NCBI GenBank assembly: GCA_051294905.1
Contig: CM119372.1
Coordinates: 9,736,001-9,800,000, forward strand
DNA length: 64,000 nt
Source: Botryllus schlosseri
Lineage: Eukaryota
Direction: 5' to 3'
In this document: positions 1,270-11,366 of the stretch, piece after piece
How positions within the stretch are numbered: the stretch's first letter is position 1
Layout of the letters: every line of letters starts with the position of its first letter
Notes under the pieces: model-generated
What the model was told of the DNA's origin: nothing
Databases searched by the model: none
Seen by the model: only the letters and a program-made list of their open reading frames with translations
Made by a program: the position numbers and the translations under genes

Positions 1270-1384
1270 GAGGGCTTTCTCGGATGCTGGGATTTTGTAT
1301 TCCCCAAAGAGGGCAAAACTCAACGAAAAAACATTTTCGCTGTTGATTCGCTGCAATCAGCAACAGCTGCAGAAAATGGTTTAG
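1270..1384 (+). pseudogene. hAT transposase C-terminal dimerisation-domain remnant
   Basis: RAFSDAGILYSPKRAKLNEKTFSLLIRCN matches the hATC pattern ERxFSxAG...R..L. The preceding part (CALASIISE) lies just left of the MITE, at about 450-480. Confidence 0.7.
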
Positions 1385-1745
1385 TTTATCCTGTACTGAT
1401 TACAGATAGTTCTGTCTGTCTGATTTTTCAGTAATTTCGTTGTACCGACGTTCGTGTGGAAGGCTGGAACGCCGAATTCGAATAAAATAAAAATGAATGA
1501 CTTTATTGTGAATTAAATTTAGTTAGTTGTGTTTTAGTTAGTTAGTTGCCGATAATTAAATTTCATTAGTTCTAGTTCTAGTTCTAGTTGCGAGTTTTGA
1601 AAATTGAGTAGTTCTAGTTCTAGTTATAGTTGCGGAATTTGAAAATTGGGTAGTTCTAGTTATAGTTGCGAGTCTTAAAAATTGAATAGTTCTAGTTATA
1701 GTTCTAGTTGCGCTTTTTGAAAATTCAGTAGTTTGTACAAGTCTG

Positions 1746-2350
1746 CTCTAGGACGAACACAAATTAAGATATGATCGTATGAAGTTGTTCAACTCGAGAT
1801 TTTAAAAGGGTTAAGAGGCTGGTGCGGAGCAGCGAAACCACGTTTGATCGTAGTGCAACAGCGTTTGATGTTTTACAGTGGTTAGTTAATGCAAAGCTAC
1901 TTGATTCGACAACATATCTATGCTCGTGTCTGAAACTTTATCTGACCATTGGTGTTTCAATTGCGAGCTGTGTGAGGAGCTTCTCAAAGCTCAAACTGAT
2001 TAAGTCTTATTTACGTTCTACCATGAATGATTATCGACTATCAGATCTATCCATTCTGTCTATAGAAAGTTCAAAAACTTGAATTTGAGGATATTATCGC
2101 TGATTTTGCTTTGAGGCGGCTATTGATTTTCTATCTGCACAATACATTCGTTTGCTATTTCTTGTCTTTATTATTTTTGGCCTTACTAACGTCGAGACGG
2201 TGACGCGGCATATTATTTGTAATTATTTTTATTGACAAGATTGCTTGAATATGAATCTATGTCGAAATTTGCTGCGGTCTACTTAGGGGGGGGGGGGGGG
2301 GGCATTTTAGGCGAGAGCCAGGGGCGGCGGCACATGCTGCTACGCCAGTG
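1746..2350 (+). mobile_element. 3' end of a decayed ZMYM-type hAT transposon
   Basis: LKLYLTIGVSIASCVRSFSKLKLIKSYLRSTMNDYRLSDLSILSIE is a typical ZMYM/hATC C-terminus. The element ends in a hAT-like TIR, GCTACGCCAGTG. Confidence 0.8.
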
Positions 2351-3115
2351 ACTGTACCCGCTACTTCAGCATACTTCTACTCCAAACGAAATCCTTATCA
2401 CATAAATAGTGTACGCGGGGTCACGATCGAACCACACATAACTAAACTGAATGATTCGTAAAGGTACGGTGAACATATATATAGGCCTAGACCCCCAATC
2501 TCGTTTTGCGGATACAGAAATGTCTGTTGTATCACATATATCTAAAACTATGCCTTCTTGTATGCCTCAGTGTAGATCTTTACCTGGAGTAAAGGAGTCA
2601 CCCTTTGTAATGCGCAAACGCAATCAACAGTCAAGACGAACAACCACGCTCAGGATCAAAACTGTTCGTGCATGTGCAATTGTGCATTGTGCATTTACGC
2701 ATTAAATTCCAACAGAAGCTTGTCGTACGTGTTTGTCTACGAAGACCTAGGCAACAAAACCACCTAGCAGATCACTTCTGCTCTCAAAAACGACGAGAAT
2801 AGCGTGAACTAAAAGCCTGATCCTCGGCACGCTAATTCCCATCGCCCACAATAACTCGCATTGTCCAGATTGGTAAAATTTATAATTCTACAACGATTCA
2901 TATCCCGATACGCGCGCACGTTACAGAGCGACATATAGAAAAATTCAACATTCCCAGCACAAAATAGGGCGTAAAATAAGTGACGCAAGGCACACAATGC
3001 TGCGCGCGGAACAGAAAATTCCGCGGTACTGTATTCGGGCAAGCAGCGTCCAAGTCGATCGGCCGGTTTCCATATAAACATGAAAGAATACGAGTCCCAA
3101 TAGTGTATTATTACT

Positions 3116-3144
3116 TTAACCCATCAGAATTGACTTAATGAATG
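3116..3144 (-). CDS. Myosin light chain alternative C-terminal exon C3 (AFIKSILMG*)
   Basis: Strong acceptor TCTTTTTCCTTTTCAG, phase 1, 29 bp to the stop; homologous to ELC C-termini. Confidence 0.85.
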
Positions 3145-6100
3145 CTGAAAAGGAAAAAGAGAAACGGCGTTACTCGGGAGAAACTACGAGAGGAGGTGAC
3201 ATACGTGCATTCAGGCATGCATGCAAATCTCAAATCGGGCGAGCAAAACACTAGTATCATTTGTTGACTCGAGTCGAGCAGTGAGAGTTGATGTCTTCGA
3301 GAAACGAAACTACACGCCTTCAGATCAAGAATAATATTTCAAAGAAAAATATCATAGATTCAATACTGTACTAGAGCAACCAAATCTCGGCAAACCGTAG
3401 TTCACCAACGCATAACATATCGCACAATGCTACTAATATTCATAAGCGCCACGAAAATGCCATGTTCTAGAAATATCAAGTCTGACACTTGGCAGCGTCT
3501 TCGCAGTGGCCGAAAAAAGGCATATTTTAACCTATGAACTCATTATTGCTGTTATGGCATCATAAAAGGCGACACACGAATGCCCGCCGCTTAATACTCG
3601 AGTAGGAATCGAATCATTGAGACACTCGATGTTTGCCCAGCCCAGGGTTTTACATAATGATCTCATAGCGGTCAGTGGCTGACAAACAAGGCCGATACGA
3701 TGCAGTTAATGGCCACTCGCGACTGTAACGCCAGTCCAACCAGCCAGAACATGACCAAGCGCACAATAATATCACGAATGGATTTCGAGCCTGGCACATG
3801 CGCTTGACAGTTTGCAGAAGGGCTGTTCAAAAATAACTTTTTTTCTGGATTCCAGCCAGTCACTGATTAAATTGTCAGGTTACTCTATAAAACGCTGCAC
3901 ACCAAATTTGACTCAATCCCAACTCGTAGAGACGGAGTTATTTGAGTTTTTCGTTGGTAATTCTCGGATTATCCACCAATCAAGGGTAATCCGATAATTA
4001 TCAACGAAAAACTCAAATAACTCCGTTTCTACGAGTCGGAATTGAGTCAAATTTGTTTTGCATCGTCTTTGAAGACAGCTCAACAATTTCACGGGACTGA
4101 CAGAACAATTTGAATTTTTTTCCCAAATTTTTTCCTAATAGATTAAAAATTTTAATTCATCTGCGTTTTTTTAGGGTAACCTGACAATTTCATCAGTGAA
4201 TGGCTGGAATCCAGAAAAATAGTTTCGATCCAATTCATTCAAGCTAAAACGCTACGAAACTGTCAGACGCGCAGCAAAGTTGATTCCGGATGACAATCGT
4301 GCAGTAGGCTACATGCCCCGTCAGCGTCGAACATAGCTTAGCATGCACTGGATCAGATAGATTACAGACCGCATGACATAGAGCTTGTCCTATTCAGATT
4401 AGCGTGCGGCGCGCGCGGGTAAGTGTAGCTTTTAAAGGGGATATTAGATATAACTGATAAGAAAACCGGGAAGTAACGTAAAGCCGGGAAAGAAAGAATA
4501 AACAGAATCTCGTAAACGTAACCGGGCAACTAAAAACACGAGCCGCTAGCGAATTTGGTAACAAAACTCCTCATTGCAGATTCCATAAAAAAGTCGGGCA
4601 CATGTTCCCCTATCTCACGTACAAGCGCCGACAGTGCCTTCTTGCGGACGCGTCAATCAGTACGCCGGCAGTATCGTTTATCCGCTGCGAATCAATTTCG
4701 CGAGGTCTGCGCGTGACAAGCAATGACAATTAGCACGCTGGTGAGGTTTGAGTGTGACGCGACAGTGCGGGTTGACATGGCCGCGATGGGCGGCCGATAA
4801 CAATACGTACCGGGAAGAATCGAAGAAAGGCTTGGTGAGTGGGAAAGAAGAGAATTATCCTTCCAAGAGGTATTTGCTGAACTCTGACAGAGAAAGAATG
4901 AAGAGCGACTGACAGAATAATTCGCGAAGACAAGGTAAGCGGATCACACAGGCTCCGGACGACGGGCGCAGCCAAAACCAACTTACCGGTAGCTACTTTG
5001 GTACAGGGGTGGTCAAAGTAATGATTCTTGGCGCTCAAGTGCCAGTACAAGTAATGCTGTAAATCTATACTCAGTTGCAAGTAGTGATTTCCGAGATAAG
5101 TCAAAACTGCTTCAAGCGGAAGTAGAAAATCATGACCTGAAAGGTGCCATAGTGTTTTAAATGTAGCTTTGGCTGAGACGTCGCACACCTTAAGGGCGGA
5201 GATAATAAAGTTAGCTGATCCGGGAGAATACTAATCGTGTGATTAAAAACCGCTAATCGGGGCGCATTTTAGGCGGAGATAATTAAGTTAGCTGATCCGG
5301 AAGGACGCTAATCGTGTGATTAAATACTGCTAATCGCGACGCATAAATTAGGAAAAGGTTACGCGCGATGGTAAGTCGAGGTGTCCCGAGTTTTCAATCC
5401 AAGTGGCGTTATCTGTTGCATCATAATGCGAAAACGAGTTATAGGCTGTCAATTGTCAATTTGTTGAATGAAACAGCAGCCTGCTGATAACGATACTGCC
5501 ATTGTAATACGTAGAATTATCATCATCGCGAAATGAAAGCCCTGTCCAACTAGTACGGTACGGCTGAGAAACGGAATATAAAATATTGATAGCGCTCTGC
5601 AACGGTGGGTACAAAATTCGTAGATTGTTTAGTGAAGCCACTACCTAGGAGACAATCCACACGGTCGTTATCGGAAATATTTGTGCGTAGGAATGGTACG
5701 CATTGTACGCAGTTTTTTTCAACTAGTTATCTATAGTTTGTTCCGATTTGTTGAATCATGAGATTTGAACTAACTTAATGCGCGGCGATCAACCTGTTTC
5801 CTGGATCCTGGGTTGATAAATCCTGACGAACGCGATAATCGACTTTATTGCTAATTCAACTTTATTATCTCCGCCCTAAGTGGTCGATCGAAGTTGGCTA
5901 CTTTGAAATATTTGTTTCTTCGCGTCCAACGCAAAATGACAAATATATTCAGTTATCGCCATACAGGGGCAAATTCTTCTACTTTATCCATAATCTAACC
6001 ATAAACCCCAGGTGAAAATCAAAGTCTGCAAAGGACAACAACCTTCGTAAGTAACGCAAGTAGCTGAATCACACATCAGTCCCGAAAAATGTAGAGCTAC

Positions 6101-9100
6101 GTCGTTACTGACGCACTTTCCCTTTAATATTATGACGTCATCGACACACCACACGAAACGGGTATCCTGGAGTCGTGGATACAATTGAGTGCTGGCAACC
6201 CTCCTTTTTCCTACTACGCCGTCGCCCACGGCACGATCAAGAAATCGAAATTTCGGAAATCATGATCAATAGACAGCGCAAGCAATCGGAGGTGTCAAGA
6301 ACACCCAACAGTAATTACAATTCGCAGTCGCATTGCTACAGCATTCCAATTACAGCAAGCCCGAGATATTTACTCCGACAGCGCCAGCTCCTCGACATTC
6401 CTTATCCCTCCAGAACCGTTTTTACCAACACTACATGATAAAGAAACGAGATTCGTTCTCTCACAAAGCTCAAGTGGGCAAGCGATAAGAATTCCGAAGA
6501 AGCCTCTCGCCAGACGCCGACTCACCTTCGTAATTAATGCAACCGTTGGCGTCCTCTTGTCCTTGCAGCAGGTTTTCGACTTCTTCCTCTGACATTTTCT
6601 CGCCTGAAATATAACGCAAAAACGGGTTGCCAGAAACGCGAAGGCTACGCTAGGCTGACATACCGAGAGTGGAGAGGACGTGTCGCAGTTCGGCGCCGAG
6701 CACGGTGCCGTTGTTTTCTTTGTCGAAAACCCTGAGGCCTTCGACGAAGTCCTCGAACGAGCCGCGCTCCGTTTGCCTTTCGATTTGGGCGAGCATGGGC
6801 AAGAATTCGCTAAACGACACTTGTTTCGTCGAGAGCTCTGCAGGGACACGCGGAATGGATAATTACTCTCTGGGCCTAGGCGGGCGGAGTGCTATACAGT
6901 CATTGGATTCGGTGACGAGCGTGCTAAACCGATGACATGCAGTATACATGGGCTATGCCTGAATTCCAACTACCTAGATGTCACAGGGTGTAAACATCTC
7001 AAGGCTGGGCGCAATAATTCGAGGTTTACCAGAGAATTCCGCACCTGGCGACCACTGATCCTAACCATATTCCGAATACATTTATACATACATACATATT
7101 CGCTCATATTCCGTGAGACACTCATTTTCGAAATTTATTGCGACACTATCGACTCCTACCTTTCACAAGAATAATGGTTTTCTAATGACAAATTCGCGCA
7201 GTGCCGTACTCACTGTCAATTGATTCGACTACTGGAATCCGAAGCGAGTATGAATCGCAAAGAATACTCAATAATAAACTAGTTAGTAGTGACTATTTTT
7301 CCCCGAGTATAGTGAATGCCAGACACGGCCCTTGCGAATAGGCGTTACAAGATCAATTAGAATTTTAGTTTCGATGGCTTTCTCCCCGCCGCAGAAGCCT
7401 CGAAATCAAAAATCGGTTGCAACACAGTATCCAAAAAATCACAGCGCAAAGCTACGAACGTTAGCAGAAATGACATATCTGTAAAAGGTAGTGAGCAGTC
7501 CGCGACCTTCTGACAAAGCGCATCGAAACAGGCATAGTCGAAAAAACATCAACTTATCTTTAAGACGGTGCGTGACTTGGCTTGTTTTCTTTGCGCTCGG
7601 CTAAAAGGTACATATTTTGTCTTTGCTAATCGTAAACGTTGTCATGAATGAAGTAATAGTGAGTAACACTAGAACAGTCAAGTTAACTCGACGCCTAATA
7701 ACTCGATTCGGGTTATAATAATCGATTTTACTCGGGCCTGATGATGCACAAATTGATATTCGATTTCGTTCATAGCTCCAGCAAGACATACTTAGCCCCA
7801 GGAAAGGCCTACTTAGCGCATAGCGCCGTCGGGTATGGTCGTAACGAATGGCCCAACAGTATAAAAAACACCACGGCAGACATCAATCTATAAACACCAA
7901 TGCGCACACTTTACAGGCTAGGTATGAAGTAATGCAATATACCCTCCGGCGTGGGGTTGTTCAACACTTTGGCCACTTCCGCCTCGGTCGGATTCTGTCC
8001 CAACGCCCGGAACAGCGTCCCAACCATGTTCATTGCGATCTTGTCGTTGCCGGTGGTGTCCATCATGGCAAACGTCTCATGACAGTCTTTCGTGCATGCG
8101 AGCAGTGACAGTGAAGAGATGCGGGGTGATGTGCGTTCGTGTTCGCGAAAAGGATGGCGAATGTGCGTGAGGAAATAGCAAGGAACAAGAAAATTGAACA
8201 ACGTTACACGATATCAGAGGTGGTCATCTCATATTCATCGTTGGTACTCATGTAAAAAGTAATGTAAATTTCCACTCAAGTATCGATTTCCAAGTCAGTA
8301 ACGGTAGCGTAGTAGCCAAAACATCATCACCACTTGAACTGTTCGAGGCAAAATCTACTCCAGTCCTCCGAAAAAGTAGTACTTTCGTTACTGACCACAA
8401 AATCATAACCACTTGAAGATACTCTTGGAGGTATCAAACTTCAATATACAACTGAATAGTATATTCATATTGAAATAAACCCGAATATTTTCGGCCGACA
8501 CTCGTCTGCGGTAATCGTCAGCAACTAGTAAAGAATGTTCTTTCCGATTCTCCACTAGTTGCAGTCGATTACCCCTGACGAGTGTCAGTCGGATATTGTC
8601 GAGTATTTTTCAATATGAATGTGTCATTCAACTGTACAAGCACTCGAGGAATTATATCAGCTACATGGGTACTTCGAAAAAGTACAAGTACTTCGTCTGC
8701 ATGATATCAACAACCCATTTACCGTAACATAATTAATGGACAACGCACACATTCCGCGCTGTCGAATAGCGATCGTGACGAAAAATGAATCATGCCCCGG
8801 TGACGAGCGAACGTGCCACGCCGATTTCACGCAATACTTCACCCTCTTTTTTGGGGTTTCCGAGGACTTTGGACACGTCCGCGTTCGTGGGATTTTGACC
8901 GAGCGATCTTATGATATCGCCGACTTGATTCGCAAAAACCTTGCCGTCCGCGGCTCTGTCGAAGAGCTCGAAAGCCTCTTGACATTCTGACGCGTAAGCG
9001 AATATCAATGTTACAGTGCGTACGTGCGACTGTTGTACATATATGGTGTGTAGGAAACACGTCAGTGTAATAAAATAATGCCGTTGATTACTCCGCGCCG

Positions 9101-10979
9101 GAATACGGTGAATTAGTATTCAACGGACCTCTGTTGAAACAAACACGGCCAGTCTCGTAAACGAGAAGCCAATACCGAGAGTAGCTACTATGCGCTCCAC
9201 GCTTCAACGGCCGCGGCATACCAAATATGGAATGAGAGAGCCGAACGCGATCTCGGGAGCAAGGCTCAAAATGAGCAATTAAAGTAATCGGAATCATTGG
9301 TTGGGTACGATCGCGGACTAATGCGATTTTTTCCTAACCAAGGTCACAAATGTGATGATATGCGACCCTCATCAACTACTGAATATGTCAGCCGGCACCC
9401 TTAAGGCCTTACCTGCGATCCTGTCGTCACTGAAGTCAGCCTGCAGAAGAAATGCAGCATTTCAACGTTGATATATAAACCAACATTCTGTAATGGTACA
9501 GCACAAGATCCCAACACCGAATAGTTTCAAATTGTTCAAAAAATGAAATAAAATGAAATAAACACATTGTTAAAACTTTACTGCTATTGATGGTGTCCGA
9601 TTTTTTTGTCTGGCGAGGAATATGAATCACGTATACAACTGGCAAAAATAATCATAACTGGACTCTTCTAGGATATGGGTGGGCTTTTTTAGAAGGACAA
9701 AGAAAGGGCAAGGAAAATATTCTCAAGAACTGAGCAAATTATTGGACTGTAGAATTCAGATTCAATGCGACAAGTTCGATCAATTGATGCAATCACATCT
9801 GACAATTATGCTTTTGTATTGGGATGAGATAAGGAATCGAAGTTTGAGCACACAACCTAATAATTGTTGGCCATCAAAAAAATATTTGTTGGAATAGAAA
9901 AGACCGTCAGCAATTTGTAATTTATACTAGGCACCAATTTTTGTGCTATTTTGCAATAGTTGTTACTGATTAGATACTACAGAAACCATTTGAAGACCAA
10001 CGAGTACATTGTGCTTGGCCAGCTTGGTACATATGTATCCGCATAATGGTGGGGAACGGGAGCAGACTATCCTATTGTTATATAATATTAATTTGTCTAA
10101 TTGGTCTAACGGATCTAAATCACCAGGGCATAAATATTTAAGTTCACTCGGTAAACAGATAATTTTGAATACTTTCGCAACTTTGAGGGTTGGTAACTGA
10201 CTAATATCAATCTATTTTGTTGAACAGTGCATGCCAATCCCACGATGGTAGGTTACTGATGTTATTATCCTAAAGGGGCGTAAACATCACAAAGTCTGTA
10301 AGGATGTTAATACTCTAGTCGGCAATTTGAAAATAGTACTATCATTATTCTCGCCCGACTTGATGCCATTTTGTTGCTGGAAACTTTTTGCCTTATGGAA
10401 TTTTGTGTGATGAGCATAGAGATTGCATCTTTAATATCAGTGACGATGAACCATAAGGTACTTATACGATATCCCTCATATTTCAAATCCTTTTTATGAA
10501 AACTGATCCTCGACCAGCAAGCCATGCTTGAGTTTGTAATAATATTCATAAGCATGCATAGGCAATACGTTGCTCTCTTGTATATAATATCAAATTGCCG
10601 TTCAAGATAATCAAATAAGTGTTGAATAGTGAACATACAGAATATTTCAATGTTACAAGCCATTTTGAACTATATTTACAACTGTCATTCTATATTCTCA
10701 TTCACACACCACACTAATAATTATTCAGATATTTTATACCCAAAATATTCATACGGTTTATTATAGCCATACACAATGTTATCAACAACCTTGCTAATTT
10801 GCATTTAGAGCCATGCATGCACAAATTCACACTTTCGCCGGATGATAATAATTTAATACAATAGATCCCTTTGCATGCCCCATACCTATGATACAATTCG
10901 AAGACATCTGTTTTTTCAACAATTTATATCAATTCGAGATACCACAACTGCTGCTACATATAGAAGTCTGACTTACCAT
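3116..10979 (-). CDS. MYL6: Myosin essential (alkali) light chain, MYL6-like, alternatively spliced
   Basis: Exons: ATG 10977-10979; 9413-9440 (28 bp, ADFSDDRIA); 8843-8986 or 7943-8086 (144 bp); 6664-6837 (174 bp); 6526-6603 (78 bp); then 6402-6430, 4855-4883 or 3116-3144 (29 bp to the stop). All junctions are GT-AG and in phase. The motif [32 protein letters not shown] is present, and exon sizes match vertebrate MYL6 as recalled. Confidence 0.95.
3819..4225. mobile_element. Tc1/mariner-like palindromic MITE
   Basis: Starts AGGGCTGTTCAAAAA and has a long hairpin centred near 3980. Related copies at about 38040-38278 and 54813-55340. Confidence 0.6.
4855..4883 (-). CDS. Myosin light chain alternative C-terminal exon C2 (EFSKYLLEG*)
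   Basis: Acceptor CTTTCTCTGTCAG, phase 1, 29 bp to the stop, with a GTACGT donor after 4811. Same C-terminus as the Halocynthia smooth-muscle ELC as recalled. Confidence 0.9.
5194..5876. mobile_element. PIF/Harbinger-type MITE
   Basis: TIR GGGCGGAGATAATAAAGTT...AACTTTATTATCTCCGCCC flanked by TAA on both sides (5191-5193, 5877-5879); internal duplication of the left end. Confidence 0.85.
6402..6430 (-). CDS. Myosin light chain alternative C-terminal exon C1 (VLVKTVLEG*)
   Basis: First acceptor after the 78-bp exon, phase 1, 29 bp to the stop. Confidence 0.85.
6526..6603 (-). CDS. Myosin light chain constitutive exon (EF-hand 4 region)
   Basis: [29 protein letters not shown] and GTGAGT splice sites. 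Confidence 0.95.
6664..6837 (-). CDS. Myosin light chain constitutive exon (EF-hand 2-3 region)
   Basis: [61 protein letters not shown] and GTATGT splice sites. Confidence 0.95.
7943..8086 (-). CDS. Myosin light chain duplicated EF-hand-1 exon B
   Basis: [48 protein letters not shown]; 144 bp, phase 1-1, open frame, AAG and GTATAT splice sites. Confidence 0.85.
8445..8638. mobile_element. Hairpin MITE between the duplicated exons, inside a decayed CAGAGGTGGTC/AGTAGAAGT-family repeat
   Basis: Imperfect full-length inverted repeat (TATACAACTGAAT...ATTCAACTGTACA). A half copy at about 31795-31860 continues at 32126-32142. Confidence 0.65.
8843..8986 (-). CDS. Myosin light chain EF-hand-1 exon A
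   Basis: [48 protein letters not shown]; 144 bp, phase 1-1. Confidence 0.95.
9221..9234. promoter_or_regulatory. Intronic CArG box (SRF) overlapping an MCAT/TEAD-like site
   Basis: CCAAATATGG is a canonical CC(A/T)6GG and overlaps GGAATG, within an intron of a muscle gene. Confidence 0.45.
9413..9440 (-). CDS. Myosin light chain 28-bp exon 2
   Basis: [20 protein letters not shown] acceptor and GTAAGG donor. Confidence 0.92.
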
Positions 10980-11366
10980 ATTTCTATCGGTTTTAGGTAA
11001 TCCCACGAAAGATAATTTGCGGAGAAAGAATACACGCAACTACTCGGTCTACGACTTCTGGATCGGTATCTGATAACACGAAGCCTACGCTACGAAACGA
11101 AGTAAGTTTTCTCCTGGGAAAAAAGAACTTAGCCATTACAAACGATGGAACACAGTGTTCCCAATGTTCCAGTATCCTTTTTCATAAGAGACTAATTAAT
11201 GTGGTCATAACTTCGAATAGATTTTTTACACATAGGGTAATTGTTATCTATGTTTTGATAATACAAGTATTAAATTATTTCCCCTCTAAAGCTTGACTTG
11301 TTACGGATAATTTTTTCATCGGGCACATAGCCTACGCTTCGTCGATTTCTGTACTGGGTGGGTCTG

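Follow-up and report, generated by a model that had tools for sequence, protein, structure and literature searches.

The window analyzed here is a stretch of 64,000 nucleotides (nt) from Botryllus schlosseri (contig CM119372.1 of GenBank assembly GCA_051294905.1, positions 9,736,001 to 9,800,000 of the forward strand), and all coordinates given below are counted from its first letter. On its minus strand lies a gene that we read as coding for a MYL6-like myosin essential (alkali) light chain (ELC), in which one splice donor leads to four alternative C-terminal tails through three stop-bearing cassette exons and a common last exon; we assign this reading a probability of roughly 85%. The RNA data cover positions 2000-11200 and comprise one raw bulk RNA-seq run (X23), in which 11,294 reads were placed (8,565 being at least 99% alike), together with three contig runs (X1, X2 and X6) that stem from three further studies. 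Contig runs drop minor variants, and absences there mean little. All listed introns of the gene are of the GT..AG type on the minus strand, and read counts refer to X23. In the order of transcription, the exons are as follows, UTR standing for untranslated region:

10977..11078, minus strand: exon 1 (first coding exon), ending with ATG (10979-10977) followed by the donor GTAAGT; joint 9440-10977, 467 reads
9413..9440, minus strand: exon 2, 28 nt, encoding ADFSDDRIA; joints to 10977, 8986 and 8086
8843..8986, minus strand: exon 3A, 144 nt, first EF-hand of the GNPKKE type; joints 8986-9413 (220 reads) and 6837-8843 (325 reads)
7943..8086, minus strand: exon 3B, 144 nt, alternative first EF-hand of the NNPTPE type; joints 8086-9413 (272 reads) and 6837-7943 (271 reads)
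6664..6837, minus strand: exon 4, 174 nt, constitutive, with joints in RNA
6526..6603, minus strand: exon 5, 78 nt, ending in ...GCINYE plus one g; joint 6603-6664, 613 reads
6374..6430, minus strand: cassette 6a, 57 nt, VLVKTVLEG and stop (6430-6402), 28 nt of UTR, donor GTAAAT
4811..4883, minus strand: cassette 6b, 73 nt, EFSKYLLEG and stop (4883-4855), 44 nt of UTR, donor GTACGT
4623..4706, minus strand: cassette 6c, 84 nt, DLAKLIRSG and stop (4706-4678), 55 nt of UTR, donor GTACGT
2864..3144, minus strand: shared last exon, 281 nt, AFIKSILMG and stop (3144-3116) when joined directly to exon 5, otherwise 3' UTR

Splice joints of the tail and EF-hand exons

Exon 5 carries a single donor, GTGAGT at 6525, which serves all four tails, and each tail completes the codon split at this point. 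In RNA, joints from 6526 lead into cassette 6a at 6430 (106 reads), into 6b at 4883 (366 reads), into 6c at 4706 (73 reads) and, with every cassette skipped, into the last exon at 3144 (167 reads); together they amount to 712 reads, compared with 613 for the joint between exons 4 and 5. Each cassette is also spliced onward to 3144, with 96 reads leaving 6a at 6374, 447 leaving 6b at 4811 and 76 leaving 6c at 4623. Entries and exits balance for 6a (106 in, 96 out) and 6c (73 in, 76 out), which indicates that each of these cassettes goes straight to the last exon. The joints of 6b are present in all four runs, entry into 6c in three (X23, X1 and X2), direct joining to the last exon in two (X23 and X1) and 6a in X23. 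The 6b form is the most abundant tail form in every one of the four runs; beyond this, the tail proportions vary among runs that carry no tissue labels, the contig runs again losing minor forms.

Cassettes 6a, 6b and 6c are internal stop-carrying exons, and the exon at 3144 contributes codons solely to transcripts that lack all three. None of the three is a transcript end: their donors are used, a poly(A) end is seen at 2864 alone, where an X6 contig stops in a run of T on the plus strand, and the table of frequent molecule ends lists none. Alternative last exons with poly(A) sites of their own are thereby ruled out. An earlier note on this DNA, made from the letters alone, had placed the three 29-nt tails of 6a, 6b and the last exon at the positions given above, where RNA now joins them to 6526, and had pointed to a GTACGT behind the 4883 tail; this motif lies at 4810-4805 and is the donor used by 447 reads. 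Its proposal of several nine-residue tails on one donor beside a duplicated EF-hand exon is likewise borne out in RNA, with the correction that the tails are four, the one at 4706 having been missed. Its view of the tails as separate end exons gives way to internal cassettes at 6430, 4883 and 4706 that are spliced to 3144, and its ceiling of six ELCs (2x3) is replaced by 2 x 4 = 8.

The second source of variation in the gene is the pair of first EF-hand exons. Exon 2 is spliced to 3A in 220 reads and to 3B in 272, and exon 4 follows 3A in 325 reads and 3B in 271. Among the 15 joints listed, 17 more falling outside the list, no 3A-3B joint occurs; the two are a mutually exclusive pair. The gene can thus encode up to eight light chains that vary in EF-hand 1, in the last nine residues or in both, and all eight combinations of exon 3 and tail, when spliced in silico from the window, come to 151 residues each. 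Pfam matches of single exons to the EF-hand, including that of 3A, are weak and below the curated cut-offs, as expected for fragments, and exon 3B taken alone gives no Pfam EF-hand match.

A scan of both strands of the window for an AG followed by 29 nt to the first stop returned 237 sites, of which four match the tail pattern, all on the gene strand downstream of exon 5; in 100 mononucleotide shuffles the pattern occurred 0.03 times per strand on average and once at most. The pattern was derived from the same tails, so that the scan is circular and serves as a sanity check only, the actual proof being the RNA joints. A search for a fifth tail, limited to the 29-nt length, gave nine AG + 29-nt candidates in 2864-6525, and five of these are not tail-like and have no joint among the 15 joints listed. 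Base pairing between docking and selector sequences was considered as a basis for the exclusive choice and rejected: the inverted repeats in 2800-6700 belong to an element resembling a miniature inverted-repeat transposable element (MITE) or are matches of 12-15 nt that do not exceed chance (by estimate, about 0.45 perfect 12-mers are expected).

Motifs for a splicing regulator were also considered. The Rbfox-type motif TGCATG is not enriched in the window (46 occurrences against 41.7 expected). Two overlapping copies lie at 3216-3225 on the minus strand, 72-81 nt upstream of the acceptor of the last exon, and another at 4342-4347, 276 nt downstream of cassette 6c; the doublet by the last exon is only a lead for a regulator of the Rbfox type.

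Several further signals lie in and around the gene. In the intron between 6a and 6b, a 19-nt near-copy of the end of exon 5 with a GT donor (17/19 identical) occupies 6041-6059 of the minus strand; it may have been left behind by a local duplication from which the cassettes arose. The same intron holds two tandem copies of a 73-nt unit at 5195-5344 (88% alike, with a spacing of 77 nt); 645 nt away, at 5858-5877, the start of this unit recurs as a perfect inverted copy of 20 nt. The MITE-like element at 3835-4224, in the intron before the last exon, has outer arms of 58 nt (91% complementary) and inner arms of 86 nt (88%); its word depth is 464-940 in the contig runs and low in X23, as expected for a dispersed repeat. 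Between 3A and 3B, the segment 8447-8753 reaches a word depth of 1336-8751 in the contig runs compared with about 27 in X23, and many contigs continue from it into unlike sequence; it is probably a repeated, transcribed element. Position 3013 in the 3' UTR is A in the window and C in 880 of 881 X23 reads as well as in the X1 and X6 contigs, so that the sequenced animals show a fixed difference from the assembly. Downstream of the poly(A) site, 2000-2306 is transcribed (X23 depth about 89), with 1,218 reads entering poly-G at 2302, and represents either a neighbouring transcript or a sequencing artefact. At the 5' end, an X6 contig extends upstream past 11078 into sequence outside 2000-11200, which points to an additional 5' leader exon or to a spliced leader.

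Family identity and paralogues

To judge by its sequence, the gene product is the MYL6-like ELC of a stolidobranch ascidian. The identity of exon 4 is 93% with the Styela clava 'myosin catalytic light chain, smooth muscle-like', 89% with MLE_HALRO of Halocynthia roretzi, an orthologue named smooth-muscle myosin light chain in UniProt, and 79% with Molgula. When the 57 amino acids of exon 4 were compared with solved structures, 23 ELC sequences (MYL3, MYL1/3, MYL6 and others) outranked the first calmodulin, with E values of 7e-22 to 5e-20 for the best 21 ELC matches and of 1.4e-12 or weaker for calmodulin. Following its family, the protein would bind a myosin-2 heavy chain at its first IQ motif.

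Exon 4 of this gene is present once in the 495-Mb assembly. Two tandem ELC-like paralogues lie about 7.7 Mb away at 17.44-17.46 Mb (L004 2298-5876, and L004 8392 to L005 5890), with exon 4 identities of 57% and 53% and one exon-3-like match each. Read by eye, the second paralogue has an apparently single, longer tail after ...ILQYS; inspection by eye did not find the tail exon of the first. With these two genes present, splicing is not the sole source of light chain diversity in this genome. The suggestion in the earlier note that splicing here does what vertebrates do with paralogues is overstated on this ground and also for a second reason, namely that vertebrate MYL6 has the same switch.

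Light chain tails in ascidians, vertebrates and flies

Comparable isoform sets are present in other ascidians (Clavelina RefSeq isoforms X1-X7, Ciona intestinalis X3, X5, X6 and X7, Styela X1-X5, and MLE_HALRO), the likeness extending to the GNPKKE and NNPTPE types of exon 3 and to the tail classes. In Clavelina lepadiformis, the seven isoforms represent seven of the eight combinations of two exon-3 forms with four tails (ALIKMVMDDK, EFSKYLMEG, DLVKMVCSG and AFIQVILSG). Ciona intestinalis and C. savignyi have the tails ALVKMVASG, AFSKYLIEG or EFSKYLIEG, and AFISLILSG, together with both exon-3 forms. The smooth-muscle light chain of Halocynthia roretzi combines an exon of the 3A type with EFSKYLLEG, identical to the tail of 6b. 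Styela clava, with AFIKAVMEG, AFCKYVLEG and AFVKQILNG, differs from this locus in having three tails, without the DL..SG class among the isoforms examined. The tail classes of these relatives match the four exons of the window, and the system therefore predates the split of the stolidobranchs from the Ciona/Clavelina lineage.

The kind of switch seen here is already known from MYL6 and Mlc1, and its ascidian version is already in RefSeq for Clavelina, Ciona and Styela, so that it is not new as annotation. The records of the relatives are mostly automatic models without a published description, to which this locus adds another species. A literature search found no paper on alternative tails of a tunicate essential light chain, older subscription papers being outside its reach, and the string 'splic' is absent from the text of a Ciona paper that treats the gene as Myl1/4/6 (PMC7397655). 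The present analysis contributes the fourth tail, absent from the earlier note, the direct junction counts, the anatomy of cassettes plus a shared last exon, and a tentative class match to vertebrate exon 6.

Vertebrate MYL6, whose switch gives LC17a / LC17b as non-muscle versus smooth-muscle ELC, belongs to the same family, also has 151 residues and likewise diverges after ...GCINYE: proteins named MYL6 split right after NYE into ELVRMV[ML][SN]G or AFVRHI[LM]SG tails, and lamprey has the tails EFVRHILNG and AFIRHIMSG. Its short penultimate cassette supplies nine codons and a stop, and its skipping makes the last exon encode an AF[VI]..I..G tail. For the comparison of the window cassettes with MYL6 exon 6, the length and intron phase of the latter are taken as general background. 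The differences are that MYL6 has one cassette compared with three in tandem here, and that the MYL6 proteins compared are without the mutually exclusive EF-hand-1 pair. In human, mouse and lemur, skipping of the MYL6 exon is specific to compartment and cell type (PMC8563012). Drosophila Mlc1, also an ELC gene, has a stop-bearing penultimate exon whose inclusion or skipping depends on the muscle type; it is skipped only in flight muscle and gives alternative 12-residue ends (PMC3245913). The fly gene differs in having one long cassette exon and 12-residue tails, and the exons are likened here by design, not by homology.

The question whether the tail switch is ancestral to tunicates and vertebrates or convergent, posed in the earlier note, leans to an ancestral origin without being decided. 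A single origin in the tunicate-vertebrate ancestor is favoured by the same break point directly after ...NYE, the same cassette logic and the matching tail classes. The last-exon tail is of the AF[IV].. kind in both groups, that of the window agreeing with AFVRHILSG at five of nine residues. The counterparts of 6c, DLVKMVCSG in Clavelina and ALVKMVASG in Ciona, both agree with fish ELVKMVMSG at seven of nine, compared with three to four of nine for the AFVRHI.. tail (all counted by eye over nine residues), and lamprey also has both tails. Nine helix residues under a common structural constraint do not settle the origin: the stop-bearing cassettes of ascidians could have arisen independently if every C-terminal ELC helix has to suit one and the same surface of the heavy chain. 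Such convergence would agree with the small span of nine residues, in which 6c shares only four with fish ELVKMVMSG (by eye), with the similar penultimate cassette and 12-residue tails of Drosophila Mlc1, which indicate a design that can recur or is very old (PMC3245913), and with a comparison confined to tunicate, vertebrate and fly sequences. Against the shared break point and tail classes we consider independent origin unlikely, though a serious contender.

Two other explanations concern the status of the cassettes themselves. Cassettes 6a and 6c might be 'poison' or noise exons that lower output, so that only the 6b and skipped forms yield functional protein. Of the 712 reads that start from 6526, they receive just 106 and 73; none of the three contig runs contains 6a; in 6c, 55 nt separate the stop from the last junction; and inclusion of such an exon in Drosophila could expose the mRNA to nonsense-mediated decay (PMC3245913). 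Set against this, both exons retain exactly nine sense codons and a stop, with the same helix pattern as the other tails, and distant ascidians have counterparts of them (Styela AFIKAVMEG, Clavelina ALIKMVMDDK and DLVKMVCSG); in 6a and 6b the stop, at 28 and 44 nt from the junction, is in the range that normally escapes decay, and 10-15% of the junction reads of a very highly expressed gene exceeds the level of noise. A poison or noise role is consequently improbable. That the extra tails might belong to a downstream separate paralogue or pseudogene, for which the near-copy at 6041-6059 offers a hint of past local duplication, was named in the earlier note as what would overturn its reading, alongside the case of only one or two tails being joined to 6526. 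This is refuted by the RNA, in which all four tails join the donor 6526 directly; the genome has one copy of the gene, the window contains no other exon-4-like sequence, and the near-copy is silent (X23 depth 0 over 5991-6297), leaving this explanation with practically no probability.

Several points nevertheless weigh against the reading of one light chain gene with four functional tails. For 6b, 447 reads leave and 366 enter, an unexplained excess of 81, and there may be minor double inclusion or further acceptors, the four acceptors being those among the 15 joints listed. The joint into 6a is found in only one of four runs, in a setting where contig runs can lose minor forms. The 6c stop, 55 nt from the junction, is at the edge of the decay rule, and part of the 6c mRNA could be a target of decay and not a source of protein. 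Short reads do not link 3A or 3B to a tail, which makes the figure of eight isoforms a ceiling and not a count; the RefSeq isoforms of the relatives, as automatic models, may be combinatorial extrapolations and give no proof of pairing. Tissue-specific use of the tails would follow only from the Halocynthia protein and from vertebrates, and the effect of the tail in vertebrates is itself disputed, in vitro motility being reported as unaffected by the LC17 isoform (PMC5742693).

Proposed mechanism and meaning for light chain diversity

As the RNA shows, the one donor of exon 5 is spliced to any of four acceptors, those of 6a, 6b, 6c or the last exon, and the cassette used supplies nine codons with a stop, followed by UTR of 28, 44 or 55 nt, before being spliced to 3144. 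Stops at these distances from the last junction would allow singly included cassettes largely to escape nonsense-mediated decay, whereas with a second cassette the stop would be separated from the last junction by over 55 nt and the mRNA laid open to decay, which may help to keep the cassettes exclusive. In the protein, the tail would form the last helix of the C-lobe, gripping IQ1 of the heavy chain and adjoining the motor domain. A contact of the ELC C-lobe with the heavy chain at its N-terminus or at a loop of the motor domain is described in one source (PMC4914028). The choice of tail may adapt the light chain to a particular heavy chain or type of contraction, or may alter motor coupling. 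The 6b form would be that of body-wall muscle, because it is the commonest in all four runs and its tail is identical to that of the Halocynthia muscle protein, while the skipped (AF...) form would be, by analogy with vertebrates, the general non-muscle default.

As a tentative proposal, to which we give somewhat less than even odds, ascidians multiplied an inherited cassette to three and added the exclusive EF-hand-1 pair, obtaining up to eight light chains whose tails are matched to different heavy chains or contraction types (body-wall muscle, heart, non-muscle and others). If this is true, nature would have set up in ascidians a four-allele experiment on what the LC17a/b tails do, a matter in dispute.

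The four tails lie about 280-365 nt from the poly(A) site, so that ordinary 3'-tag single-cell data could assign them to cell types, and together with the cassette anatomy they merit inclusion in the gene models of Botryllus schlosseri. The locus also has a bearing on the way in which muscle and non-muscle myosins are made in tunicates: light chain genes are few there, and splicing is seen here to produce diversity alongside paralogues. The function of the last nine ELC residues is debated in vertebrate smooth muscle, where two versions exist; four conserved versions selected by splicing from one donor in a chordate gene would provide more contrasts for the question of what the tail does.

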